The notes under the pieces: generated by a model | Seen by the model: the letters and a program-made list of their open reading frames with translations, nothing else | Database searches by the model: none | Told to the model about the DNA's origin: nothing | Shown: one piece after another, positions 1-45,740 of the stretch | How positions within the stretch are numbered: the stretch's first letter is position 1 | Layout: each line of letters begins with the position of its first letter | Virus record (IMG/VR): IMGVR_UViG_3300013137_000025 | Location: 1-55,769 of that record | Strand: one strand, 5' to 3' | Length of the DNA stretch: 55,769 bases | DNA from: a virus | Taxonomy: Duplodnaviria > Caudoviricetes | Position numbers and translations under genes: made by a program

Positions 1-157
1 CCCAGGACAGGTTCGCCCCGTACAGGGTCGCCCCGGACAGGTCCGCCCCGGACAGGTCCGCCCCGGACAGGTCCGCCCAAGACAGGTCCGCACGCACTCC
101 TCCGTGTTCGTTATTCAGCCACAGGGCATGCAGCCGAAGCACTTTATTGAGGTCCAT
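1..157 (-). CDS. Pentapeptide repeat protein (partial, runs off window start)
   Basis: Manual translation from ATG at 157: MDLNKVLRLHALWLNNEHGGVRADLSWADLSGADLSGADLSGATLYGANLSW; 15-bp tandem repeat at about 1-92 encodes A(D/N)Lxx repeats. Not in the ORF track. Confidence 0.85.
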   Translation of the reverse strand, partial: MDLNKVLRLHALWLNNEHGGVRADLSWADLSGADLSGADLSGATLYGANLSW

Positions 158-217
158 GAGCCTTAAGGTCCGAATTGTCCATGACGTGAACTCCTTTCTG
201 AAATTCAGAAACTTCTG

Positions 218-406
218 TCAATCCCTGGCGTGTATGAGGTCCTGGAAGTCATTGTGTCTTGCAAGCTCTCCCAACTCGACCTCCAGCTCCCGGAACTTGG
301 CCTTGTAGTAGGCCAGATCGCTGGTGAGGTCTGCAACCCTGAGTTCGAGGTCACAGACCTCCCTTGCACGCTGCATCAGCAGGCGCTCCAAGTGGGTTTC
401 ATTCAT
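218..406 (-). CDS. Hypothetical coiled-coil protein
   Basis: Start MNETHL at 406 overlaps stop of upstream gene; heptad-like LELRVADL...LEVELGEL. Confidence 0.6.
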   Translation of the reverse strand: MNETHLERLLMQRAREVCDLELRVADLTSDLAYYKAKFRELEVELGELARHNDFQDLIHARD

Positions 407-770
407 ATGCGGACTCCACGAATTTCCAGACTTCGGGGATGAATTGTAGGACCCGTCCCAGCACCACGTCTGGATACAAGTTGTGATACGTTTCTCCTTC
501 ATGGGTGAGGGACCACCGCAGGCCGTCGTATTCCAGGTCGAATACGATCGAAGTGGCCACCTTCACAGGACGTTTTTCCGTCCTGGCGACCCCTGTCGCC
601 CGTTGACACGCCTCTTTGTTGGCCAGTGGGCCAAGCAGGGTCAGATAGGACTCCTCTATCGACCATCCACCGGTGGGATGCTTGGCCACCCAGCCCCATG
701 ACATGCAGTCCGACTTGGGGTGGTACTCTATGTCGAATTCCACAGATACATCGAAGTGTCTCTTGATCAC
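399..770 (-). CDS. Hypothetical protein
   Basis: 123-aa ORF co-oriented and packed within the leftward array. Confidence 0.65.
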   Translation of the reverse strand: MIKRHFDVSVEFDIEYHPKSDCMSWGWVAKHPTGGWSIEESYLTLLGPLANKEACQRATGVARTEKRPVKVATSIVFDLEYDGLRWSLTHEGETYHNLYPDVVLGRVLQFIPEVWKFVESAYE

Positions 771-786
771 TGTAGCCGTCCGTTTT

Positions 787-1014
787 CTAAAGGTTGGAAT
801 TGTCCCCTCTGGCCTCTTCTAGGACACAGTCCACCAGATCGTCCGAATCCATCAATCCCCAATGCTCATGGCTTCCATCCGGCCGGTCGATGTTGACTGC
901 CACGTATCGGTATACGGGCAGAGCATTGAACTCATGGTCATCCGCCCTGGAGATAGTCACCTTATTTCCATTGGAGAAGGTGATTTCGATCCCGGTTTCG
1001 GTATTCTTGAACAT
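787..1014 (-). CDS. Hypothetical protein
   Basis: 75-aa ORF with AAGGAG RBS upstream. Confidence 0.7.
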   Translation of the reverse strand: MFKNTETGIEITFSNGNKVTISRADDHEFNALPVYRYVAVNIDRPDGSHEHWGLMDSDDLVDCVLEEARGDNSNL

Positions 1015-1137
1015 ACTGTCTCTCCTTCAAGAGTTAAGCCATCCCCAGATGGCCATGGTGATTTTCCACGCCTCTCTCCCGGATACCCAAAACAGGCACC
1101 CGATCATGACTCCAGGGTATTGCCTTCTTTCTGAATT

Positions 1138-1404
1138 TCAGAAACTGTCTTCGGGGATGACTTTCCCGAAGTAGAAATCGAGGAGACACCAGTCCTCGGT
1201 CTCGTCCACGGGGACCAGAGTGTCTCTCGACCCCCGGAATTGGGCGTCCCGGAATGCCTTCCAGGACCGAGACCGGGCCCGCTGGACGTCATTCCAGGCA
1301 TTGGGTACCCGGTTGATCCCATGCCTGACCTTCGGCTGGAACATCTCATCCCCCTCCAGGCTCCGATACCACTGTCTGGTTCCCCTCGGCCTACGCATCA
1401 CCAC
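1138..1404 (-). CDS. Hypothetical basic phage protein
   Basis: AAGGAG RBS right after palindrome 1415-1429; its TGA lies inside palindrome 1129-1143; PNAWND/RSWK motifs resemble a small phage family. Confidence 0.7.
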   Translation of the reverse strand: MVMRRPRGTRQWYRSLEGDEMFQPKVRHGINRVPNAWNDVQRARSRSWKAFRDAQFRGSRDTLVPVDETEDWCLLDFYFGKVIPEDSF

Positions 1405-1446
1405 ATCTCCTTGATTCTGAATTTCAGAAAATCTCTCCGGGAGAGA

Positions 1447-1638
1447 TTACGACACGTATGCCAAACCCAACTGCCTGGCGATCTGTCGCTTAGCTCCCCT
1501 CGTCAAAGATGTGTTGCGAAGCTGAGCACGAAGCTCCGACTCCCGAATTGCCCCGTAGTTAACAGGGACCGGCTTCCCGAAGACCCTGAACATTGGGTTC
1601 GGGATGCCCCTGGGTGAAGACCCCCAATCAATTCTCAT
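1447..1638 (-). CDS. Hypothetical protein
   Basis: 63-aa ORF overlapping the upstream gene end. Confidence 0.5.
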   Translation of the reverse strand: MRIDWGSSPRGIPNPMFRVFGKPVPVNYGAIRESELRAQLRNTSLTRGAKRQIARQLGLAYVS

Positions 1639-1840
1639 CGTCGTCCTCCATCAACCGAGGGAGTTCGATGATCAGAAACATGCCGCCCAGGATAGCCCCG
1701 ATCATGGACCCGAGGATCCACAATGGCCGGAGCATGGGATTCCAGGGCCAGATACCCAGGGCCCCCTCGAAGGCGGCTCCCAGGAACAGGGAGATCAATG
1801 CCCCGATCCCCACGGCTCGGGTGAGTCCAGAGAGTTTCAT
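1628..1840 (-). CDS. Small membrane protein (2 TM)
   Basis: Two hydrophobic segments and acidic tail; AGAAGG RBS after palindrome 1854-1868. Confidence 0.7.
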   Translation of the reverse strand: MKLSGLTRAVGIGALISLFLGAAFEGALGIWPWNPMLRPLWILGSMIGAILGGMFLIIELPRLMEDDDEN

Positions 1841-1862
1841 GTATCAACCTTCTTTCTGAATT

Positions 1863-2189
1863 TCAGAAATTCCTCACCAGTCCCATGCATCCTATCGGCC
1901 GACCCTTCTCGTCCCGAATTAACTCTCCGGGAGAGAACACATCCCCCCGGTTGGGGACCGCCAGTCTCACCTGGGTGGACACCACCCACCCCACCCCCTC
2001 CTTGGGCTCGGGAAGGAATTCCACCTCCCCCACCCTCTGGGTGAAGATGTCCACCGTCGTCCCAGTCGGAAACTCGACTAAGATGTTCTCCGTCTCCACC
2101 CGAGCCTCGACTCCCGAGGGAACCAACACCATCCGGCCCCGCTGGGAGTGAACCACAATCTCATGCTTCGTCAGGTTCACGAATTCCAT
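1863..2189 (-). CDS. NLTxH-family protein, putative Crn4-like ring nuclease
   Basis: N-terminal VNLTKH, PSG..AR, LPEP, VVS, RGD, RDEKGRPIGC; AGGAGG RBS; stop inside palindrome 1854-1868. Family link recalled, not searched. Confidence 0.55.
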   Translation of the reverse strand: MEFVNLTKHEIVVHSQRGRMVLVPSGVEARVETENILVEFPTGTTVDIFTQRVGEVEFLPEPKEGVGWVVSTQVRLAVPNRGDVFSPGELIRDEKGRPIGCMGLVRNF

Positions 2190-2354
2190 AAGTCCTCCTA
2201 TTTCAAATCCCGACCATCCCGATCAAGATTCCAAGGTTTGGAATAACTACCCATCACCCACGATACCCAGAGGGTTAGGGTAATAATTATTCGAGAACTT
2301 CGGAGATTCGGGGAATTAGTTTAATCCCCTGATGAATACCCCAAGGTAACGCAG

Positions 2355-2401
2355 GGAGGGCCCAAACTTCGAGCCCCCCCATTCTGACTGCTCGGTCAGA
2401 A
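2355..2401 (-). terminator. Possible terminator hairpins after the 2396-2581 gene
   Basis: TTCTGAC-N6-GTCAGAA inverted repeat (2382-2401) next to a GC-rich stem GGGGGCTCGAAGTTTGGGCCCTCC on minus strand; no clear U-tract. Confidence 0.35.
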
Positions 2402-2581
2402 GTTGACCAGGACACCCACGGCGTTCGGGTGGGCCTGGCGGTACTTCGCCCGGCTCGCCGCCCTCTTGGCCAACTTGGCCACCCGAGCCTTCTGCTCCTC
2501 TACCCGAGCCCTCTGCCTCGCCTCGAAGTCCGCCAACATCATGCTACGCAGCTGGGACAGCTTCCCATTGGCGTCCATCAT
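2396..2581 (-). CDS. Hypothetical basic helical protein
   Basis: GGAGG RBS after palindrome 2597-2611; Arg/Lys/Ala-rich. Confidence 0.7.
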   Translation of the reverse strand: MMDANGKLSQLRSMMLADFEARQRARVEEQKARVAKLAKRAASRAKYRQAHPNAVGVLVNF

Positions 2582-2703
2582 TCAACCCTCCACTTATTCT
2601 GAAATTCAGAATCTTGGCGTTCCCAAGTCCTTGAATTCCAGAGGTTTCCGACTTCCCCCCGGAGGGGGATTCACCCAGGAACCACCTGGGATCATCAGGC
2701 CGG

Positions 2704-2937
2704 TTAGAGGATCGAGGAATCAGGGAGGTTCGGCACCCCGAGAGCATACAGGGTATTCTGGCTCCTGGCGATCATGCAACCAGGAGTCTGATCACCGAAT
2801 TCCATGGCGACCAGGGGACTGGTGATTGCCCGGTGACCATCCGGGAGCCGGGGGTGGTCGTAAACGATCCCCTCCAGGCAGATCCCATGGTCCGGAAAGT
2901 TGATCGTGGACCACTTTTCCATCAATGCGATGACCAT
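2704..2937 (-). CDS. Conserved phage-type hypothetical protein
   Basis: LEGIVYDHPRLPDG..ITS..NTLYALG pattern; AGAGG RBS after palindrome 2950-2964. Confidence 0.7.
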   Translation of the reverse strand: MVIALMEKWSTINFPDHGICLEGIVYDHPRLPDGHRAITSPLVAMEFGDQTPGCMIARSQNTLYALGVPNLPDSSIL

Positions 2938-3016
2938 GGTAAGCCCTCTTTCTGAATTTCAGAATTACGGTCCAAGTGTATATTTCGGCTCCCCGACTAT
3001 CGGGGGTCCGTGGAGC

Positions 3017-3325
3017 AAGTGAATATTGATGCCCGAAAACCGGGGGGTTTATCGGACGAGTGGATAGGAAATGCACAGATGACGTATAATTGGGGGTTTT
3101 TGCCCCCAACCGAAGTGTATATTCCCCTTTCCTCCCGAATCGTCCTTCCTGAACCCCTTGGAACCTGGACTGGGACCACCGAAAAAGTGGATATTTCGAT
3201 GTTCCACAGTCGTTTCTGCATATTGCCCGATCTTGAACCCCCGAATTGTCGACCTTCGACGGCCCGAAGTGAATATCGATGCCCCAAAACACGGGGTTCT
3301 ATCGGGCACCTGGATAGGAAATGCA
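3017..3325 (+). repeat. Imperfect 59-bp direct repeat (3017-3075 and 3267-3325) with AAGTG(A/T/G)ATAT decamers
   Basis: Both copies begin AAGTGAATAT and end TGGATAGGAAATGCA; decamer also at 2974, 3113, 3185. Confidence 0.8.
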
Positions 3326-3444
3326 ATCCAGGAATATCTGGGGGCAATTCGCTCTGAATAAGCGAATCGAATTACCCCCGTGAAACATCACAGGAGATGC
3401 ACTAAGTTAGCCTCATCTCCTGATCCGGGGATTCCGAATTGTCC

Positions 3445-3612
3445 CTACTTTTCGAGAGAAACGAACACCCGAGCGCTGGAGACACCTTTCTCTTCCCGCC
3501 GAGAGGCGGCGAACTGCTCCGCCTCTTCCGACGACCGGAAATAGAATACCTGGTCATTGGTCCAATAGAAACTGATGACCACGACAAAGTCGAATTCGAA
3601 TTCGAACGTCAT
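3445..3612 (-). CDS. Hypothetical protein
   Basis: Start MTFEFEF at 3612 with GGAGG RBS after palindrome 3630-3644. Confidence 0.65.
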   Translation of the reverse strand: MTFEFEFDFVVVISFYWTNDQVFYFRSSEEAEQFAASRREEKGVSSARVFVSLEK

Positions 3613-3689
3613 TCTCACCCTCCACTTCTTTCTGAATTTCAGAATCTCCTGATCCACGGAATTATGGACCAGGGGAGCCCGAATTGCCC

Positions 3690-3875
3690 CTACCTGACCA
3701 CCACAGGACGGACATAGTCGTCATGGTCGACGACCAGCAGGCCGGGGGAGTAGACCGAGATCATCCGCAGGATCTTGTACCCGTCCTTGGGGAGGAACAT
3801 CGTCCCCAAGGGACCGGTGAATACATGAACGTCCAACCCCTTCTCGACCTTATCAAACTCGAAGATCATTGTCAC
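3690..3875 (-). CDS. Hypothetical protein
   Basis: AGGAGG RBS after palindrome 3887-3901. Confidence 0.7.
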   Translation of the reverse strand: MTMIFEFDKVEKGLDVHVFTGPLGTMFLPKDGYKILRMISVYSPGLLVVDHDDYVRPVVVR

Positions 3876-4286
3876 CCTCCTCTTCTTTCTGAATTTCAGA
3901 ATTATCTGGGCTCTCCAGAAGTTTCTGAATTTCAGAATTACCAGGCATTCCGAATTAGGCAGAGGTATCCCCCCCCGGTCCAGCCAGGGTGGACCCTATT
4001 CGGAATTACCCAAGGGGATTCGGATTCCGAATTATCCAGGTGATTATCCACCCGAATTACCCGGCATGTGAGCCCCCTATCGCCCCAGGTCACTTGGCGG
4101 TTCCAGGTCTTTACCTGGGGCAAGTCCGCCCGGTCGACATCGACCACAGACCGTATTCAGGATCCAATCCGGATCCGCATACGCATATCCATATCCACGT
4201 ATTCCGCATATTCGCATAAATGCAGACGCCTCGGATATCTCTGAAATTCAGAATATCCGAGGCGCCTGGCACGACTTTTGCCGCAG

Positions 4287-5294
<1,008 letters not shown>

Positions 5295-5403
5295 TGCGAC
5301 CAACTCCCGACTCGGTCCCACTGTCAACCTTCCTTGCTTTGGCCGGGTTCGCGCGCGGCAGTTTGCCGCTTGCCCCCCGACCTCCCTTACAACGTGTCCA
5401 CTA

Positions 5404-5432
5404 AAGATAAGCATTCGCCAGCCCCTTGTCAA
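5404..5432 (-). promoter_or_regulatory. Sigma70-type promoter for the leftward array
   Basis: TTGACA (5432-5427) - 17 nt - TATCTT (5409-5404). Confidence 0.7.
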
Positions 5433-5438
5433 GCCTCC

Positions 5439-5504
5439 CGGCGGCAGCCGGCGGCAACCCCAGCCGGCGGCAGCCGGCGGCAACCAGCGGCAGCCGGCGG
5501 CAGC
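5439..5504. repeat. Degenerate 9-10 bp tandem repeat (C)CGGCGGCAG
   Basis: About 6 units just upstream of the promoter. Confidence 0.7.
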
Positions 5505-6072
5505 GTTACCGAATTGCCGAATCCCCCAGCCCCCGTTCTTTCCGAATTCCGGAAAGACGAGAAACTTGGACCCCAGCCCTTGACAGATCCAGGTGGATGT
5601 AAAATCCAGATTTGGAAAAACGCTGTACGCTACCTCATCCTTTTGAAGTCGAAATCCGTACACCCCCTCCCCGAATTCTCGAATCCCCCAATCATGGTTT
5701 CCCCCCGGAATATCTGTTCCCCAATTCTCTTTCCCCGAATGTCTAATTCTCTATTCCTCTGGGGTTTCTAAATCTCTGAATTGCTGTGGGGTTATCTGGG
5801 TTATCTCTCCCTGGATTCTCTGGTTCCTTTTGGACGACATAGTTGTCCTTGGGTTCTATATTCCTCTTTGGATGGCCTCTGAATCGTCTTTACCTGTGTG
5901 GAGGGGTGACTGCTTCTGAACGCGAAGTTCTCTTTTTCGCGGGGATGATTTGATTATTGGTTCTCCTTTTTGGGAGGAGAAATTGGAAATTGGTAAACCG
6001 AGGGGGAATGTATTATGGATAGACATCGGTTACATGTGGTTTGGAGTTCACATTCCGGCCGGAGGGAGGGGA

Positions 6073-6477
6073 ATGGATGGGGATTGTGATGTGAAGGTAT
6101 GGATTGATTGGGAGTGGATGAGGATAGAGGTGTCGGGGGATGGGGATCGGCGGGTGGTGGTGTTTAGTGAGGCGTTTATGGAGAGGCTGAGGGGATGTGC
6201 GCAGCGCACCACGATGGTGGTATTGTCGAAGGTGTTGAAGTCATTGGGGGCTATGGGGATGATGGTGGATGATGTGGTGCAGTTGGATGAGTTATCGCGG
6301 TGGTATGGATTGGAGAGGGGGGAGGATGGGGAGTGGGATTGGGGGAAGGTGGCATGGGGGGATGATCGGGATTTGACGGTGTGGTGGTTTATGGATGGGG
6401 GGTTGGGGATGGCGGGGGTGGGCAAGGTATTGGGGTTATTGGACCGGGTAGTGAGGGAGATGGAGAAGGGGTTGTGA
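6073..6477 (+). CDS. Hypothetical protein
   Basis: ATG 6073 after GGAGG; first gene of the rightward block. Confidence 0.6.
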   Translation: MDGDCDVKVWIDWEWMRIEVSGDGDRRVVVFSEAFMERLRGCAQRTTMVVLSKVLKSLGAMGMMVDDVVQLDELSRWYGLERGEDGEWDWGKVAWGDDRDLTVWWFMDGGLGMAGVGKVLGLLDRVVREMEKGL

Positions 6478-7328
6478 GGGTGATTGTGGGGTTGAGTGGT
6501 GGAAAGGCGTCGGCGTGGTGTGCTGGGTGGGCGTTAAGGAACTTCCCCAAGGAAGGGGTAGTTTTCTATTTCAATGATACCAAGTGGGAGCACCGGGATC
6601 TGTATAGATTTATTGATGATCTGTCAAGATATTTTGATCATCCTATTACAGTGGATTCGGATGGAAGGAGTCCTGAGGATTTGTTTCGTGAATACAGAGT
6701 ATTGGCTAGTAGTAGGATGCCGTTTTGCACCAGGATTCTGAAGGCCCAGAGGCTTCAGGTATTTTATGAGGATGGGGATGTGTTAGTTTTCGGTATAGAT
6801 TCCAGGGAACCGGAGAGGGCGAAAAATCTGGAGAGAATTTATTCGATGGTGGCTATTAAAACCGGGAAGAAATGTCAGTTGAGGTTTCCCCTTATAGAGG
6901 AGCGGGTTACAAGGGATCAGGTGGATGAATTTATCAAGAGCACGGGCATCTTGGAGCCACAGATGTATCGATTGGGGTTCTTGCATAACAACTGCTCGGG
7001 TGGGTGTGTTAGGGCGGGGAAGAGACAATGGAAGATGCTGTATGAGAAGCTCCCCGAGGTATATGCTGAGAGGGAGAGGGTGGAGAGGGAGCTTGGTGAG
7101 TTGTTGGGGAAGAAGGTGTCTTTCTTAAGGGGAGAGACCTTAGAGGAGTTCAGGGGGAAGATTGAGAGAAAGTCCTTATCATCCTATTACTACGACGATA
7201 CGTGTAGTGGTAGGGAGTATTGGAAGCTGGTGAGCAGGTATGAGGCTGATAAGAAAAAGAAGGCGGCCCCTCGTCCAACCCGTGGGAAGAAGGGGTTTGT
7301 GCGTAGAAGATTTGGGATTGGGAAATAA
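6474..7328 (+). CDS. PAPS-reductase-like / adenine nucleotide alpha-hydrolase (PP-loop) protein
   Basis: GTG start overlapping upstream TGA; VIVGLSGGKAS PP-loop, CTRILK, FPL, HNNCSGGCVRAG Cys cluster. Confidence 0.8.
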   Translation: MRVIVGLSGGKASAWCAGWALRNFPKEGVVFYFNDTKWEHRDLYRFIDDLSRYFDHPITVDSDGRSPEDLFREYRVLASSRMPFCTRILKAQRLQVFYEDGDVLVFGIDSREPERAKNLERIYSMVAIKTGKKCQLRFPLIEERVTRDQVDEFIKSTGILEPQMYRLGFLHNNCSGGCVRAGKRQWKMLYEKLPEVYAERERVERELGELLGKKVSFLRGETLEEFRGKIERKSLSSYYYDDTCSGREYWKLVSRYEADKKKKAAPRPTRGKKGFVRRRFGIGK

Positions 7329-7339
7329 GGAGAGAGATA

Positions 7340-7666
7340 ATGCGCATAGGCGAGGTCGTGATGGCGTTGTTGGGGGGAGGGAAGAAGGCTGGGCCTCTGG
7401 AGGAAGTGGAGTCACCGCCCCCTGCTCCGGCCGTGGACGAGTTGACCTTGGTAATCCATCTGAGGAATGGCCTAAAGAGGACCTATACAGCACAGATAGG
7501 GAAAACTGACCAGAAGATTGAGGCGGATTTAAATGTTCATTATCCCCAGTTGTGGGAGGAGTTGGAGGGGAATGGGAAGTCGGTATTGTTTCAATACAAC
7601 GAAGGGGAGGATTGGTTTTTGAGGGAGGAGATTGTCCTCGTCACCCTGAATTTGAAGAGGGGGTGA
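7340..7666 (+). CDS. Hypothetical protein
   Basis: AAGGAG RBS; operonic. Confidence 0.7.
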   Translation: MRIGEVVMALLGGGKKAGPLEEVESPPPAPAVDELTLVIHLRNGLKRTYTAQIGKTDQKIEADLNVHYPQLWEELEGNGKSVLFQYNEGEDWFLREEIVLVTLNLKRG

Positions 7667-7670
7667 TGGA

Positions 7671-8090
7671 ATGAGTGATACGAAGAGGTATGTTCTTGTT
7701 TATGCTGGGTTGGATAAAAAGGGCAATGCCGACAACAGGTATTTTGTTGGCCAGAATCTCTACCTTGGCATAGCCAATATAACGGATAGCCTGGAGTTGG
7801 CCACTATCATGTCTCTTGAGGAAGCGGAGAAGGTCTGGGGTTTGATGGCGGCAAAGAAGGATTGGCAGATTTGGTCTATAAGGGACAGCATTGTTCTTTA
7901 CGAGGAGTCGGATAGGCACTTGCTTATGGAGAAGCGCAAGAGGCTATCGGAGGAGTTGATGTCGATAGATCTCCAGCTTAATAAGAACTCAGACGGGCAT
8001 GGGGAGCGCCCACAGATATCTCCTGAGAATATGAGAAAGATGATAAATACTACCAGTGTTACGACGGACCAGGCTGGGTCTGTGGAGTGA
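7671..8090 (+). CDS. Hypothetical protein
   Basis: 139-aa operonic ORF. Confidence 0.7.
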   Translation: MSDTKRYVLVYAGLDKKGNADNRYFVGQNLYLGIANITDSLELATIMSLEEAEKVWGLMAAKKDWQIWSIRDSIVLYEESDRHLLMEKRKRLSEELMSIDLQLNKNSDGHGERPQISPENMRKMINTTSVTTDQAGSVE

Positions 8091-8098
8091 GGAAATTC

Positions 8099-8239
8099 GG
8101 GATGGACCTGATAGTGGGACGCCACGAACGCGCCTGTTCGAATCGTCTAAGGTGAAACCTGTGCACAGCGGACGCCGTGTACTACGGTCGGGAGATCGGG
8201 GAGGAGCATGACCTCCGGCGGGTGTTTCAGGTCCATCCC
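8099..8239 (+). ncRNA. Candidate structured non-coding RNA, family unknown
   Basis: Intergenic; perfect 13-bp closing stem GGGATGGACCTGA/TCAGGTCCATCCC enclosing CGCC/GGCG and five hairpins, including a GGGA tetraloop. Confidence 0.65.
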
Positions 8240-8289
8240 ATTGGATCATATGGGAACTTTCACTCTCCAAGGGCTGGAAAGGAGTGGCG

Positions 8290-8703
8290 ATGAACCTATT
8301 CACTGCGGAATATTGGGCCAAACATTTTGAACGAATGGAATACGAAGATGGCATTTATCCCAGTGAATCGGACGCCATGATGATTGATGATGTAGCAATC
8401 TTGTATGTGGATCACCTTGGGATGATCCAAATGGAGGGGGCGCGGAGGGGGTCGTTTATCGTTCCCCTAAAGGGTTACCGTAAGGTGAGGGACCTGGAGG
8501 TAGCGATTTCCTTCCGGCCCTGTAAAGAGGGGTTTTGTGGCTCGATTTGGACTGTCGATACCCAAGGAATCGGGTTCTCCTTCCTTGTGCTAAGGGCCGG
8601 CAAGCCTTATGTTTATGGGGTGGCATTGGAGGGCAAGTATCTGGGCCCCATGAACGAAGACGAGGAGGAGGCTCTTGATGCACTCAATGAACGTAGAGGC
8701 TGA
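8290..8703 (+). CDS. Hypothetical protein
   Basis: AAGGAG RBS; ATG 8290. Confidence 0.7.
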   Translation: MNLFTAEYWAKHFERMEYEDGIYPSESDAMMIDDVAILYVDHLGMIQMEGARRGSFIVPLKGYRKVRDLEVAISFRPCKEGFCGSIWTVDTQGIGFSFLVLRAGKPYVYGVALEGKYLGPMNEDEEEALDALNERRG

Positions 8704-9079
8704 CGCTTCGAGTGATGGATGTCCCAGTGATGAAACAGGGGTTCTCTTGGATTTTCAGGATTCGTCTATCATGTTTGATGGAGAGCTTCTGGATGCTCTG
8801 GAGGCTGCTCCTGCTTGGGTCGCTGCGACGGTGGTTGGGGGAATCTCTGATCATTACGCAAGGATGCATATAGCTCGTGCCCAGGTTGATAGGATTCAGT
8901 CGATATTATGGAGGTTTGCTCACAAGTATCCGCATGAAATCCAGATACTGCTGGACTGGATGCGAAGAGGGTATGAGTATTCTGGAGATCCTTTTAGTGA
9001 TCTGAAGTTTCTTACTTCGTTTGCCCGATGGGTAGAAACAGAGGACATTATATTCAGGATTTTCAGCAAGGAGGACTGA
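8675..9079 (+). CDS. Hypothetical protein
   Basis: Operonic ORF; exact start uncertain. Confidence 0.65.
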   Translation: MMHSMNVEADASSDGCPSDETGVLLDFQDSSIMFDGELLDALEAAPAWVAATVVGGISDHYARMHIARAQVDRIQSILWRFAHKYPHEIQILLDWMRRGYEYSGDPFSDLKFLTSFARWVETEDIIFRIFSKED

Positions 9080-12020: not shown

Positions 12021-12290
12021 ATGAAGATCGAAGTCGTTCCCGAGAAAATCACCGTGAAACTGGGCGATACGTCTGTTAAGCTCACCCGCGATGAATGCTG
12101 GGACCTATACCATGCCCTCGAAAAGGAACTTGGAATCCAGATACTCCCCACTTATCCGAACAACCCGTGGTGGATAGAGATTCAAAACCCACCCCTCAAC
12201 CCATACATTATCTGGTCCTCTGATAACACGGGCTCTGTTGATCTTGATTCGCATATCAAGGTCAACTCCATCAAGTCCGATGCCCCATGA
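12021..12290 (+). CDS. Hypothetical protein
   Basis: Operonic 89-aa ORF. Confidence 0.65.
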   Translation: MKIEVVPEKITVKLGDTSVKLTRDECWDLYHALEKELGIQILPTYPNNPWWIEIQNPPLNPYIIWSSDNTGSVDLDSHIKVNSIKSDAP

Positions 12291-12886
12291 AGGAAGTAGA
12301 GGTGCTGACTCCATCAGCTATCCTTATGTGGGTTACTCCAGACCCAGAGTGGACCATTGAGCGGGCCGCCAGGGTGTGCTACGATTCCCTTGACAAGATC
12401 GGGGAACGTCCTCAAGTAAATGAAAAGATGCTGCGTAGACTCAGAGCCTCAGGGCACTTGTCTTGCTTCGAACAAGCATCAGCATCTTTCGAGATCATTT
12501 GCTCAAGGGCGTGCCACGTCCAGATCATCAGACATCGGACCATGTCTTACTTGGCCCAATCTCAGCGTTACGTGAAACTGGGAGGGTTCCTGCCCGTGTG
12601 CGTGGTAGACCCCATCACAGATGACGAGAGATCTTTCTATGAGCACTGCTACTATGAGTATCAACGTCGGATCGAGGTCGGGCAGAAGCCCGAGAGGGCC
12701 AGGGAGGTCCTGCCCAACTCCACGGCAACCAGAATGATCATGACGGGAAACTTCACTAACTGGAGGAGATTCTTGTCAGCCAGACTGGACCCCCATGCCC
12801 AAAGCGAAGTCCGGCTTGTTGCTGGACAAATAGCGTCTTCCTTGAAAAAGATCGCCCCCATAGTCTTCGAGGACGTGAATCCATGA
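12287..12886 (+). CDS. thyX: FAD-dependent thymidylate synthase
   Basis: ARVCY, GH.S.FE, RHRTMSYLAQSQRYV (RHRx7S motif), AREVLP, HAQ.E. Confidence 0.95.
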   Translation: MKEVEVLTPSAILMWVTPDPEWTIERAARVCYDSLDKIGERPQVNEKMLRRLRASGHLSCFEQASASFEIICSRACHVQIIRHRTMSYLAQSQRYVKLGGFLPVCVVDPITDDERSFYEHCYYEYQRRIEVGQKPERAREVLPNSTATRMIMTGNFTNWRRFLSARLDPHAQSEVRLVAGQIASSLKKIAPIVFEDVNP

Positions 12887-14276: not shown

Positions 14277-14498
14277 TCAATCCGTCTCACCCCATGGACC
14301 CAAAAAAAGAACGCCTCCCTGGGCACTCAGGACATAATCGGGATCGTCTTCCACGCTGATCACCAGATCGTCCCCATCATCAATTTCCCCAAGGGCGTTC
14401 TGCCTGGCCTCCTCTATACTGGACGCAGAGGATATCACCAAGAGACTCCGCTCACTTGAATCAATGCCATACCACACGCATACCACCGACCCGGCCAT
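14277..14498 (-). CDS. Hypothetical protein
   Basis: TAATG-coupled to recA. Confidence 0.65.
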   Translation of the reverse strand: MAGSVVCVWYGIDSSERSLLVISSASSIEEARQNALGEIDDGDDLVISVEDDPDYVLSAQGGVLFLGPWGETD

Positions 14499-15556
14499 TA
14501 TTCTTCACCCTCGATCCCTTCTATAACCTCGTTGTCTATGTGAATCTTATCTATCTTACCGACACACAATAGAATATCGTTCTTGAGTTCCTCCAAAATA
14601 TTCGGGTTTTCTGTCAGGTGCCTCTTGGCATCAGCCACTCCGTGGGCGTTCCAGGTGTCAGATTTGATCCACCCACCCTTCTTAGAAAGCAATCCACACT
14701 TAACGCCAAGGTCGATTATGTCACCCAGCTTATCGAACCCCACAGCATCATTGTCCGCAAACAATAGATCGACTTCGGCTTGACGGAAGGGGGCAGCCAG
14801 TTTGTTCTTGACAATCTTAATCCTGGTTTTCCTACCGACTACCGACTCCCCGTCCTTAATCTGCCCTATAGACCTGACATCCAATCTCATGGACGCCCAA
14901 AACGGTAAGGCCCGCCCCCCTGGAGTGGTCTCGGGATTCCCTCCATAAGGTCCTATATTTACCTTCGTCCTAAGTTGGTTGATAAACAGGACCGTGGTTC
15001 CGTGCTTGTTGGCCGGGCCAGCGATCTTGCGCATCGCCTGGGACATGAGGCGGGCCTGCAAGCCCATGTGGGAATCCCCCATCTCCCCCTCAACCTCAGC
15101 CCGTGGCACCAGCCCAGCCACGCTGTCGACCACGATAAGCCCCATCCCTCCACCCTTGCAAAGCTCTTCGACGATTTCTAAGGCCTGCTCTCCTCCATCG
15201 GGCTGGCTGATTAGGAGCCGGCCAATGTCCACGCCAATCTTGGGCGCCAACTCCACGTTGAGAGCGTGTTCGGCGTCGATAAAAGCGACCTCCAAGCCCT
15301 GGCGCTGGGCCTCGGCAACGACATAGAGGGCAAGGAGTGTTTTCCCAGAAGATTCCGGACCAGAAATCTCCACAATCCTCCCACGGGGGAAACCCGATAT
15401 TCCAGTTGCCAAATCGATTGACATAATTCCACATGGTATCACCTCCACCTTGACCTTGGGCGCATCGGACAGGCGCATGATAGCCCCTGCCCCAAACTGT
15501 TTCTCGATCTTAGCCAGAGAAGCTTTGACCTTCTCAGCATCACTCATCTCAACCAT
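14498..15556 (-). CDS. recA: Recombinase A
   Basis: IEKQFGAG, GPESSGKT Walker A, FIDAEHAL, VDSVA, QARLMSQAMRK, ETTPGGRAL, KNKLAAPF. Confidence 0.97.
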   Translation of the reverse strand: MVEMSDAEKVKASLAKIEKQFGAGAIMRLSDAPKVKVEVIPCGIMSIDLATGISGFPRGRIVEISGPESSGKTLLALYVVAEAQRQGLEVAFIDAEHALNVELAPKIGVDIGRLLISQPDGGEQALEIVEELCKGGGMGLIVVDSVAGLVPRAEVEGEMGDSHMGLQARLMSQAMRKIAGPANKHGTTVLFINQLRTKVNIGPYGGNPETTPGGRALPFWASMRLDVRSIGQIKDGESVVGRKTRIKIVKNKLAAPFRQAEVDLLFADNDAVGFDKLGDIIDLGVKCGLLSKKGGWIKSDTWNAHGVADAKRHLTENPNILEELKNDILLCVGKIDKIHIDNEVIEGIEGEE

Positions 15557-16202
15557 CAGATTCCTCTCTTCCATAGGGCGGCAATTCAAAAATGGTTATC
15601 GTGCCGCCACAAAAAGGATTGATCTCACAGGCCGCAATGATTGCCATGTCCATAGTTGTTCTGGTGTCGATCCTGGGAACCCCGATAGCAGGACTCAAGG
15701 ATCTATTATGCGCCATGATAGCCGAAAGAGCCCCCAGGGCACATTCTCTCCCGGAGCCAATGGCAGCCCCTTTCTCTCCCCTGCGCTCCATCACGAAATA
15801 GGCCCCGTCCACCTCGAACAACCTGGACCTGGTAGCAATAAGAATGGTTCCCCCTTGGTTTTCCGTTTCGTCATCCTGCCTCTCCATCCGGCCATTCTCT
15901 TTAAGAAGCGATTTGAAAGGCTGGATGATATCCTGTATAATGATCTTGACCACCTCGTCGTCATCAATGGTCGGTTCCCCATCCCCGGTTAACGCTTCCA
16001 TATCAGGATAGTCAATACCATACCTGAGTATCTGGCCGGAGGCAGCATTCCCTGAATACCCGACAAGCATACCGGTGCCCGTGTCCCACACCTTATACTG
16101 CCCCGGCATGGCGTCGTCCTTCACACCATTGTCTGAAATGAGACCATCGGCACCCAGAAACATGGTTCCGTCTTTCCCGACCAACCCCACCACACAGGTC
16201 AT
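15549..16202 (-). CDS. HslV/proteasome beta-like Ntn-hydrolase protease subunit
   Basis: N-terminal MTCVVG (catalytic Thr), GAD, K, GYSG, AIGSG..ALGAL. Confidence 0.8.
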   Translation of the reverse strand: MTCVVGLVGKDGTMFLGADGLISDNGVKDDAMPGQYKVWDTGTGMLVGYSGNAASGQILRYGIDYPDMEALTGDGEPTIDDDEVVKIIIQDIIQPFKSLLKENGRMERQDDETENQGGTILIATRSRLFEVDGAYFVMERRGEKGAAIGSGRECALGALSAIMAHNRSLSPAIGVPRIDTRTTMDMAIIAACEINPFCGGTITIFELPPYGREESDG

Positions 16203-18089: not shown

Positions 18090-18815
18090 CTATGCCAGCC
18101 TTCTCCCATCCTCATCCAACCACCGGTCTACAACAGACAGCCCAATAACGAAGAATAACTCGTTATAATCGTTGTCTATAACTTCGTCCCACTCTTGGTA
18201 GTCATCTAAATCAGTTTCCGATGGATGGCTATCATCCCGGCCGGTGGGTTCAAAAGGCTCACTGGAATTTATCCTGATTAAACGCCCATCATCTTGGGCT
18301 TTTACCCAGTAAGCCTCGTTTTTGAATCTAACATCTGCAACGATGATTCTTCTATCTATCATGGACGAGGAAGTTGTATTGCTCAATCTCTGAACCCTCT
18401 CGGCAGTTTTTTCGACCCAATAATTCATTCCGAAATGACATCTTCGGTATTCTGTCCCCCACCACTGTAACATCAGAGGGTCTTTCTTAACAGCCGCGTG
18501 GTTAATGTATGTTAGGAAGACGGCATCTCCAGACACACACCTACCAAAGACTCCCTTCCGGTCATTCTGAGTAGCTTCTGCATGCTTGAACCATTCCCCT
18601 ACCTTGCGGCACAACATGGGGGACGTGTAATGCAGTAGGTCTATGGTTACCCAGTCCCCGCTCCAATGGCTCGTGTGGGTTATGGTGTGAGCAAGCTGGA
18701 TCTCTTCGTATAGAGCATCCGCAAAGTGAACTACCGTGAAGTTGAAGTCGTCAGCAACAGCCTTGGCCAAACTGTCTTTGCCCCGGCGTGGTTTCCCACT
18801 GATTCCTATCAGCAC
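18090..18815 (-). CDS. Deoxynucleoside monophosphate kinase
   Basis: GISGKPRRGKD P-loop, FADAL, LQWWGTE, DVRFKNE, HPSETDLD. Confidence 0.9.
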   Translation of the reverse strand: MLIGISGKPRRGKDSLAKAVADDFNFTVVHFADALYEEIQLAHTITHTSHWSGDWVTIDLLHYTSPMLCRKVGEWFKHAEATQNDRKGVFGRCVSGDAVFLTYINHAAVKKDPLMLQWWGTEYRRCHFGMNYWVEKTAERVQRLSNTTSSSMIDRRIIVADVRFKNEAYWVKAQDDGRLIRINSSEPFEPTGRDDSHPSETDLDDYQEWDEVIDNDYNELFFVIGLSVVDRWLDEDGRRLA

Positions 18816-45308: not shown

Positions 45309-45740
45309 CTAGCTTTTTTTTAGCCCCGCAGTGAGTGTGACGGGGTCATTCACGGCATTCGCCAGTTCCATGAGAACTGAGTTGGGAAGATCTCTGGCAA
45401 CCTCGACCAGCAGTTCTGGGGTATCGATCACATCGATGAACCCCCTCTCATTAGCTCTCTCGAAAATGGCCGGGTGGGTCTCGTAGAAGTCGTCACTGAA
45501 GGAGTAATTCTCGATCTTCTTGCAGTAGTCCAGAAACGACTCCCTATCCGCCTTGTCCATAGCCAGAGGATCCATGTCTCCAGATCGATTGTCCCTCATG
45601 GCTCTGGAATACTTGATGCTTGACTTGTTTGCCCGTTCGTGATTGCGAGGAACCAGGTAGAAAACCGTCTGAAGCTCAGAGGCTTCCGCCCGATCCATCT
45701 CGCAGATGTACGGCTTAGGCTTGCTGCCAATCCCCTTCAT
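45309..45740 (-). CDS. Tail assembly chaperone (gpG-like)
   Basis: Between tube and tape measure genes; ends CTA AAA AAA AGC TAG. Confidence 0.8.
   Translation of the reverse strand: MKGIGSKPKPYICEMDRAEASELQTVFYLVPRNHERANKSSIKYSRAMRDNRSGDMDPLAMDKADRESFLDYCKKIENYSFSDDFYETHPAIFERANERGFIDVIDTPELLVEVARDLPNSVLMELANAVNDPVTLTAGLKKS
45314..45321 (-). promoter_or_regulatory. Programmed -1 frameshift slippery site A AAA AAA
   Basis: -1 slip reads KLELLTWYVMWKT into ORF 44746-45291. Confidence 0.75.

Follow-up and report, generated by a model that had tools for sequence, protein, structure and literature searches.

A palindromic word ahead of ribosome-binding sites in a small-gene block of a caudoviricete record and in three other phage contigs: a possible operator

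The viral record IMGVR_UViG_3300013137_000025 (Duplodnaviria; Caudoviricetes), hereafter the window, was analysed over its whole length of 55,769 bases; it is a complete IMG/VR record, classed as linear and 39% complete. Near its left end, the 15-bp palindrome TTCTGAAWTTCAGAA recurs just ahead of the ribosome-binding sites of a block of short genes. This array lies far beyond chance and is confined to the small-gene block, and the same word was found in three other phage contigs. Our leading interpretation, held tentatively, is that the palindrome forms an operator for a symmetric DNA-binding regulator, used at a promoter and again at each gene junction.

A palindrome array ahead of gene starts

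The motif has nine exact matches in the 55,769 bases (Table 1), and none of 100 dinucleotide shuffles contained any exact copy. When up to two mismatches are allowed, the window yields 10 matches, for a shuffle expectation of 0.13 and a maximum of 1. The original prediction, made by reading the letters, had counted ten copies; ten sites are indeed present, nine of them exact and the tenth (4239-4253) carrying one mismatch, a C as first base on the plus strand. All ten lie within 196-4253 (4.1 kb) and the other ~51 kb hold none, even with two mismatches, so that the confinement noticed earlier stands over the entire record. The core TCTG-N5-CAGA occurs 11 times, namely in the ten copies and once inside a coding region at 45668 (Markov expectation 1.2). 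Start-to-start distances between copies are 933, 286, 439, 743, 353, 680, 257, 36 and 316 bp, in keeping with the range of 36-933 bp first given. The genes of 1-5663 lie on the minus strand and read toward the left end of the contig, which breaks inside a pentapeptide-repeat gene; ten copies are thus a lower bound and the array is probably cut short.

The link to gene starts, also predicted earlier, is strict. Eight copies end 12-21 nt before a minus-strand ATG (Table 1), with AGAAGG, GGAGG or AAGGAG in between, and the ribosome-binding site begins 0-5 nt past the motif. As had been proposed, the TGA inside the motif serves as the stop of the preceding gene at two copies (open reading frames, ORFs, 1138..1404 and 1863..2189). 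A third ORF (3938..4147) was said to stop beside copy 3923; its position is correct, but the leader to which it belongs appears to be non-coding. Of the five genes that lack a motif, four overlap or closely trail the preceding gene, and the fifth (1863-2189) has an AGGAGG of its own after a gap of 206 nt. The 50 nt that comprise copy 3630, its ribosome-binding site and the initial codons match 3853-3902 at 88% identity, although the two genes are otherwise unlike.

Two copies stand 36 nt apart at the head of the block, where they meet a sigma70-like promoter match: its -35 hexamer lies inside copy 3923 and its -10 hexamer abuts copy 3887. This match (3929-3901) is the sole promoter-like one that touches motif copies, and no conserved upstream hexamers were seen by eye before the other copies in the window or in the largest of the three other contigs.

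Table 1. Coordinates of the motif copies and of other features at the left end of the window
Feature	Coordinates	Strand	Description
Motif copy	196..210	minus	centre T on coding strand; 13 nt to ATG of 12-codon frame; 38 nt to pentapeptide-repeat ORF 2-157
Motif copy	1129..1143	minus	TGA is stop of gene 1138-1398; 21 nt to ATG of 26-codon ORF 1027-1107
Motif copy	1415..1429	minus	followed by AAGGAG and ATG at 1398 (16 nt)
Motif copy	1854..1868	minus	TGA is stop of gene 1863-2189; 13 nt to ATG of gene 1628-1840
Motif copy	2597..2611	minus	centre T; 15 nt to ATG of gene 2396-2581
Motif copy	2950..2964	minus	12 nt to ATG of gene 2704-2937
Motif copy	3630..3644	minus	17 nt to ATG of gene 3445-3612
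Motif copy	3887..3901	minus	17 nt to ATG of first small gene 3690-3869; abuts -10-like GATAAT; would cover predicted transcript start
Motif copy	3923..3937	minus	no gene behind; 3' half TTCAGA is -35-like hexamer of predicted promoter
Motif copy	4239..4253	minus	one mismatch; tip of long hairpin
Small-gene block	2..3869	minus	13 short genes of 26-123 codons and start of pentapeptide-repeat gene
Sigma70-like promoter match	3901..3929	minus	block head; TTCAGA, 17 nt, GATAAT; 9/12, consensus match only
Non-coding stretch	2965..3444	minus	480 nt inside block; several hairpins
Leader	3938..4222	minus	~285 nt, no convincing gene; rich in AATTCGG words
Strong hairpin	4223..4268	minus	arms 4223-4238 and 4253-4268; RNA fold -36.8 kcal/mol, z -7.3; tip is one-mismatch copy
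ORF	4287..5189	minus	300 codons (listed as 4287-5663); just upstream of block; good ribosome-binding site

None of the 13 short genes of the block matches a Pfam family above threshold. In the pentapeptide-repeat gene (2-182), two ATG GAC starts that are out of frame with each other are spaced 25 nt apart, and the frame of the first is only 12 codons long; the homologous gene in another contig (L161, described below) reads through from the first ATG, and the double start of the window may reflect a frameshift, a leader peptide or an error of assembly. Sequencing depth at this end reaches 108, compared with ~12 nearby, because repeats of many organisms pile up there.

Upstream of the tandem copies, the leader harbors a second perfect 7-1-7 palindrome, ATTCGGA-A-TCCGAAT (4018-4032), placed between the capped hairpin and the tandem pair, whose half-site differs from that of the main motif by one core base (TTCGGA vs TTCTGA). 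The word AATTCGG occurs 20 times on the minus strand of the window and twice on the plus strand, with 13 of the 20 in the first 5.7 kb (for example at 4058, 4033, 3956, 3685, 3440, 3247, 1549 and 176). It often takes the form (C/T)AATTCGG(A/G), right after stop codons or in the leader, and AATTCGGAA is one base apart from the right half of the motif, AATTCAGAA. The strong hairpin follows directly the stop of ORF 4287-5189 and has the look of a terminator, but without a U-run after it. Inside the block, the non-coding stretch carries a pair of direct repeats of 59 nt, at 3017-3075 and 3267-3325, with 83% identity; it might give rise to small RNAs or contain promoter or terminator pairs. Over the whole window, Rfam gave 0 matches at gathering score and ARAGORN detected no tRNA.

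Farther from the array, the region 6001-8000 has a GC skew of up to +0.49, far over the rest of the window, and its extremely G-rich plus-strand genes encode Gly/Trp/Met-rich proteins. Matches identify 6381-7328 as PAPS-reductase-like, 12287-12886 as ThyX and 14498-15589 as a full-length RecA, whereas a dNMP-kinase-like match at 18090-18815 falls slightly below the Pfam cut-off.

The same word in other phage contigs and in lake-water strains

Three other contigs, called L161, G002 and G003, carry the motif, and 33 copies could be aligned from the four records, whose G+C content is 51, 53, 59 and 67%. TCTG and CAGA are invariant in 33/33 copies, and the neighbouring T, AA and T are kept at 90% or more. 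The inner bases vary only in G002, and in that record only the inner five do. The consensus word is usually TTCTGAA-A/T-TTCAGAA around an invariant core TCTG-N5-CAGA. The window has the PAPS-reductase-like protein in common with G002 and the pentapeptide-repeat protein with L161; no other protein is common to any of these records. The pentapeptide-repeat gene is motif-marked in both contigs, with spacers to the ATG that are unrelated in sequence and length. As the core is kept while its surroundings differ, the word is under selection in its own right, rather than being the product of a recent duplication within a genome.

L161 is a 6.4-kb part of a 22-kb metagenome contig (53% G+C). It contains eight copies: six are exact, a seventh has one mismatch, and the last, inside an ORF, has C at its centre. 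At seven of the eight, an ATG on the gene strand follows the end of the motif after 9-16 nt, and the gene ahead stops either at the TGA of the motif or at a TAA that abuts it. Likeness to the window is limited to the pentapeptide-repeat gene. Three tRNA genes in a row (Arg-TCT, Lys-TTT and Ile-TAT, 1776-2034) are found within its motif-marked block, on the same strand as the genes.

The viral contig G002 (107 kb, 67% G+C, 83% complete) belongs to a temperate, siphovirus-like phage, with a tape measure protein, terminase, integrase and small helix-turn-helix proteins. With up to two mismatches allowed, 13 copies were counted (40 Markov simulations gave 0.0). They are confined to 2.7-16.7 kb, and so is every TCTG-N5-CAGA core of the contig. 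Eight copies stand 12-22 nt before a start, two have an ATG overlapping the last A of the motif, and three are farther away or have no start nearby; a compound double site precedes the first gene. Positions 1800-2010 of the locus (L241) lie within the gap that separates a leftward gene from the rightward block marked by the motif; TGTATTACATC occurs there in four direct copies and GTTCTGAAC, which contains a motif half-site, in three. The leftward gene encodes a protein whose N-terminus looks by eye like a ribbon-helix-helix, with no Pfam match.

G003 is a fragmentary viral contig of 12.5 kb (59% G+C) with genes for an integrase, an excisionase-like helix-turn-helix protein, an exonuclease and an annealing protein, and with two exact motif copies. 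A 217-residue protein (7677-8330, minus strand) combines HTH_31/HTH_3 with Peptidase_S24 (S24 E 5e-9), as in repressors of the CI/LexA type. One copy (8396-8410) lies in the divergent gap between the start of this repressor gene (8330) and a rightward early operon (ATG 8445), 66 nt from the repressor start codon. The other (6795-6809) lies between a leftward Cro-like gene of 77 residues and a rightward ORF, whose starts are 1 and 12 nt away on opposite strands. A CI-type repressor gene is thus framed by the two copies; of all observations, this one hints most strongly at a repressor operator, and it comes from one small contig. An ATG following the motif directly, with no ribosome-binding site, is seen at 8320-8336 and 9869-9885 of L241 (…CAGAATG) and at 6795-6813 of the G003 locus L035 (…CAGAACATG); one of these three leaderless-looking starts encodes a signal-peptide-like N-terminus.

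Beyond L161, G002 and G003, scans of sequence collections for the motif with a ribosome-binding site returned single, chance-level matches. No multi-copy motif locus was found in 185,579 species genomes, and hence neither a prophage nor a host. No close phage was found in INPHARED, the pentapeptide repeats being the only match. In IMG/VR, relatives of the PAPS-reductase-like protein were short and not syntenic, and neither the 108-residue block protein nor the N-terminus of ORF 4287-5189 had any relative. The single capsid relative, G001, overlaps only 45.7-55.7 kb of the window and has no motif. Similarly, no motif was present at eight phage loci (up to ~10 kb on each side) that encode a homologue of the C-terminal domain of the L161 pentapeptide protein. 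The exact motif strings had no match in the literature searched.

The region was found in three lake-water DNA runs (X1-X3; no RNA run was among the listed runs), and contigs of these runs were compared with window positions 1-9000. Two differences were observed, each in one contig of run X1. The first is found in a minor contig of depth 4.3, which coexists with a window-like one of depth 8.3. In the window, the 12 bases 2189-2200 provide the ribosome-binding site and spacer for the 108-codon gene; the minor contig has in their place six other letters and a 22-base copy of 1847-1868, that is, the motif and the following AGAAGGT. The gene itself stays in place, and the motif and its ribosome-binding site thus come or go together in front of an unchanged gene. 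In a second contig, of depth 13.4, position 2967 is joined to 3872; the 904 bp left out contain two genes and the non-coding stretch, the breakpoints miss motif copies by 3 and 15 nt, and no letters are common to the two ends at the joint. Together with the 88% repeat, the strain swap suggests short-patch homologous exchange at the module of motif and ribosome-binding site, and not the movement of cassettes by site-specific recombination.

Operator, RNA element, promoter or recombination site

Under the operator reading, the word would act in cis to enrol the block of small early or accessory genes into one regulon, and would most likely be bound as double-stranded DNA by a symmetric, probably dimeric, sequence-specific regulator. 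With five bases between the half-sites, their centres are one helical turn apart, as for many helix-turn-helix dimers. We favour this reading because such half-sites are invariant around a tolerant centre, because double sites stand at the head of the blocks in the window and in G002, and because the G003 copies flank a repressor gene, while neither covariation nor a phage polymerase was found. In the window, the two head copies cover the -35 and start regions of the predicted promoter, where a bound protein would stop initiation. At the other copies, between a stop codon and the next ribosome-binding site, it would block the elongating polymerase. With elongation blocked at the junctions, genes would not be expressed piecemeal through read-through or internal starts, and the whole block would be silent or active together. 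Promoter copies and junction copies combined thus give a layout of operator plus stoperator-like sites. What the data show are the statistics and placement of the copies, their conservation in unrelated phages, their gain or loss between strains and their position around a repressor gene in one relative; binding by a protein, action on DNA rather than on RNA, repression and the identity of the protein are inferred. The fusion of the word to a ribosome-binding site also makes a short portable patch of homology, which genes could gain or lose by recombination.

A broader reading considers motif and ribosome-binding site as a portable plug that is common to freshwater and other phages unrelated in their genes and 16 points apart in G+C, with one widely conserved reader acting at each junction. 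A gene acquiring the plug by short-patch recombination would join a common regulon, and the reader could be a host protein or a promiscuously exchanged phage regulator. We regard this reading as improbable. As for host regulators, the word is not known to fit the sites of LexA types, CRP/FNR, the Fur family (7-1-7), CodY or Rex, nor ParB parS or NrdR boxes.

Several observations weigh against an operator. The promoter match at the block head is weak, and sigma70-like matches are not enriched in this region (5 in 6.5 kb, for 2.9 expected). No protein binding the word was identified, no small protein is common to all four records, and the G003 CI protein has no relative in G002, L161 or the window. 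The protein encoded at 4287-5294, which the original prediction proposed to try for binding, corresponds to ORF 4287-5189. It has a helix-turn-helix-looking N-terminus, long Ala/Pro runs (AAAPAAAAP and similar) and a helical C-terminal part; its HTH_26 match (Pfam E 0.017) is below the cut-off. It has neither a solved relative nor homologues among proteins of 165-525 residues, its Atlas scores (at most 0.85) are leads only, and its single-sequence model is of low confidence (pLDDT 59.6). On these weak grounds it may be kept as a candidate regulator. The window phage, 39% complete, gives no sign of temperate life. Moreover, a symmetric DNA site should ignore the strand, and the centre base on the coding strand is A in 25, T in 7 and C in 1 of the 33 copies, while the inner variant AAAGT occurs four times in G002 and its complement 0 times. 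This bias has a caveat, since the copies may be related by descent and the stretches ahead of start codons are rich in A in any case. Longer complementary arms that are not conserved surround two copies (window 4223-4268; G002 5839) and suggest that hairpins form. Finally, the fixed position directly 5' of the ribosome-binding site suits a role in RNA or translation at least as well.

The first alternative is an RNA element, which we consider possible but doubtful. In this case, the word would form a small hairpin (5-6 pairs, loop of 3-5 nt) 5' of the ribosome-binding site in a polycistronic message. A phage or host protein would recognise this hairpin, either as a translational operator, like those used by T4 RegA and the gene 43 protein at their targets, or as a site where the message is processed or stabilised and so divided into units. 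The start-associated sequences of Cluster K mycobacteriophages would then have a palindromic equivalent in this element. The motif keeps a fixed position next to the ribosome-binding site in the window, in L161 and at most G002 copies, and the genes it precedes lack translational coupling to the one before. The bias for the coding strand points the same way, as do the preservation of pair 6-10 in G002 by one G-C and one G-U change, and the outer arms at two copies, which differ in sequence yet remain complementary. Lone hairpins are weak, however: seven single copies folded as RNA are no more stable than shuffles (z -1.8 to +0.3), and folding stands out solely for the capped hairpin 4223-4268 and for the tandem pair, whose copies can pair mutually. 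The stem sequence is invariant instead of covarying, and the paired fraction equals that of shuffles (250/500). No gene follows copy 3923, which overlaps the -35 region; only one of the two divergent messages at a G003 copy could carry the hairpin, and no RNA-binding family was found. Strand bias, linkage to the ribosome-binding site, longer arms and the lack of a known binder nevertheless keep an action at the RNA level alive. The earlier suggestion of an operator or translation-start element fits the link to gene starts in four contigs, the copies on the only sigma70-like promoter match of the block head and the repressor-flanking copies in one relative; no result decides between action on DNA and on RNA.

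It is distinctly unlikely that the word is a promoter, or a promoter core, for phage-directed machinery such as a phage polymerase, a sigma-like factor or a modified host polymerase. On this view, every gene with a copy would be transcribed as a separate unit, its leader being very short and starting at the ribosome-binding site. One copy per uncoupled gene, a short constant spacing to the start codon (9-22 nt) and the leaderless-like starts (two in G002, one in G003) would suit such units, and promoter words are repeated before early genes in other phages, e.g., in T7 and in the promoter early stem-loops (PeSLs). A perfect palindrome would nonetheless fire both ways, and the presumed -10 stretch is the least conserved part in G002. 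Among the 129 G002 ORFs scanned (record 83% complete), no RNA polymerase or sigma family was present. An N4-like hairpin promoter was considered for the geometry of six pairs and a 3-nt loop and for the giant ORFs of the window, and is kept only as part of the promoter reading: the window proteins of 2115 and 1470 residues match no Pfam family, PHROG or solved structure, polymerases included, and the giant G002 protein is a tape measure. The centre of the word is AT-rich, unlike the GC-rich heptamer of N4 hairpin promoters.

Still more remote, in our judgment very improbable, is that the word is mainly a recombination site, be it the target of a recombinase acting on integron-like cassettes, as the original prediction had proposed beside the operator, or a selfish spreading palindrome. 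Gene content around the common pentapeptide-repeat gene is wholly different between the window and L161, the 50-nt stretch recurs before two unlike genes, and the minor strain has motif and ribosome-binding site in place of another ribosome-binding site. These 15 bp have no attC-like bipartite structure and no integron integrase accompanies them; none was seen in the window, as noticed from the outset, and the integrase of G002 is a single phage-type gene 12 kb from the block. The strain difference moves the motif and its ribosome-binding site and leaves the gene in place, and the 904-bp skip ends near copies and not inside them. Strict placement and exact conservation over 51-67% G+C point to selection for a function in expression. 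Homologous exchange at the patch, as in T4-type PeSLs, is plausible as a side effect.

Comparison with known systems

The operator reading brings to mind the stoperators of Cluster A mycobacteriophages, bound by a repressor of the L5 gp71 type. Many copies of one word occur there, one of them at the early promoter and the rest in the short gaps that separate co-directional genes, where some reach stop codons, and a single repressor is read as silencing both initiation and elongation (PMC9283540). The site is described there as 13 bp, asymmetric, monomer-bound, orientation-dependent and spread genome-wide (PMC9283540). Likewise, copies 3923 and 3887 lie over a promoter-like match, and eight copies lie between stop and start codons. 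On the contrary, the word analysed here is a palindrome in which only the centre base differs between strands, it is limited to one block, it abuts the ribosome-binding site and it has no known repressor.

Closer in position are the start-associated sequences (SAS) and extended start-associated sequences (ESAS) of Cluster K. Their 11-19 repeats occur only with non-structural genes, a few bases before starts and sometimes holding the preceding stop; their function is given as unknown, and homologous genes keep or lack the word between relatives (PMC3203893). SAS is asymmetric, contains AGGAG and lies 3-7 bp before the start codon, while ESAS has imperfect arms of 17 bp and a variable spacer (PMC3203893). 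All copies of the window are similarly in a small-gene block, 8/10 of them before starts. Unlike SAS, they form a perfect 7-1-7 palindrome that ends, across the contigs, 9-22 nt before the start, ahead of a ribosome-binding site that varies, and the word is common to otherwise unrelated phages.

In form, the 17-bp Cluster O sequence TGTTCGG-N3-CCGAACA is alike, with an invariant 7-bp inverted repeat, a variable centre and more than 30 copies that are denser at one end; its description reports no known function, no close link to translation starts and one third of the sites inside genes (PMC4351075). Here, 8/10 copies directly precede a ribosome-binding site. The T4-type PeSLs show the order stop, repeat with stem-loop, ribosome-binding site and start, next to small orphan genes in a variable region; their repeats are points of homologous exchange and hold a full sigma70 promoter and a G+C-rich terminator stem-loop (PMC2839356; PMC4122927). 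The present array has this same order and the same tie to a plastic region of orphan genes, but a promoter-like match is found only at the block head and a strong hairpin only at copy 4239. The hairpin promoters of the N4 virion RNA polymerase are short inverted repeats with a 3-nt loop before early genes near one end; three are reported, with a GC-rich heptamer at the centre and a giant virion polymerase required (PMC4496689). The centre is GAAWTTC here, and no such polymerase was found among the giant ORFs of the window or in the giant G002 protein.

Integron attC sites are imperfect bipartite palindromes of ~60-140 bp, read by an IntI that is encoded beside the array. The 15-bp perfect palindrome differs from these in structure, and lacks an integrase in the window, the one of G002 being phage-type and distant. 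Lambdoid OL and OR are operator palindromes of 15-17 bp with a central base, which flank cI and form clusters of three at two promoters. Similarly, although in G003 only, copies 6795 and 8396 lie in divergent regions flanking the helix-turn-helix and S24 gene 7677-8330. One site before each of ten genes departs from the lambdoid clusters of three.

Repeated words at phage gene starts have long been catalogued and their function is mostly unexplained, as for SAS, ESAS and the Cluster O palindromes, stoperators being the exception. The new elements here are the fusion of a perfect palindrome to the ribosome-binding site and the presence of an identical core in phage contigs that have no other detectable kinship. 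Since this core is common to four contigs that are otherwise nearly unrelated, one trans-acting reader must be common to them or easily exchanged, and the CI-type repressor encoded between the G003 copies offers a concrete protein candidate. Such a reader, if found, would explain how blocks of orphan early genes are switched jointly and recruit new genes, and would also yield a compact and transferable control element. If the portable plug were to prove right, the word would be a regulatory code for early and accessory genes that crosses lineages, rather than a lineage-specific set of operators.

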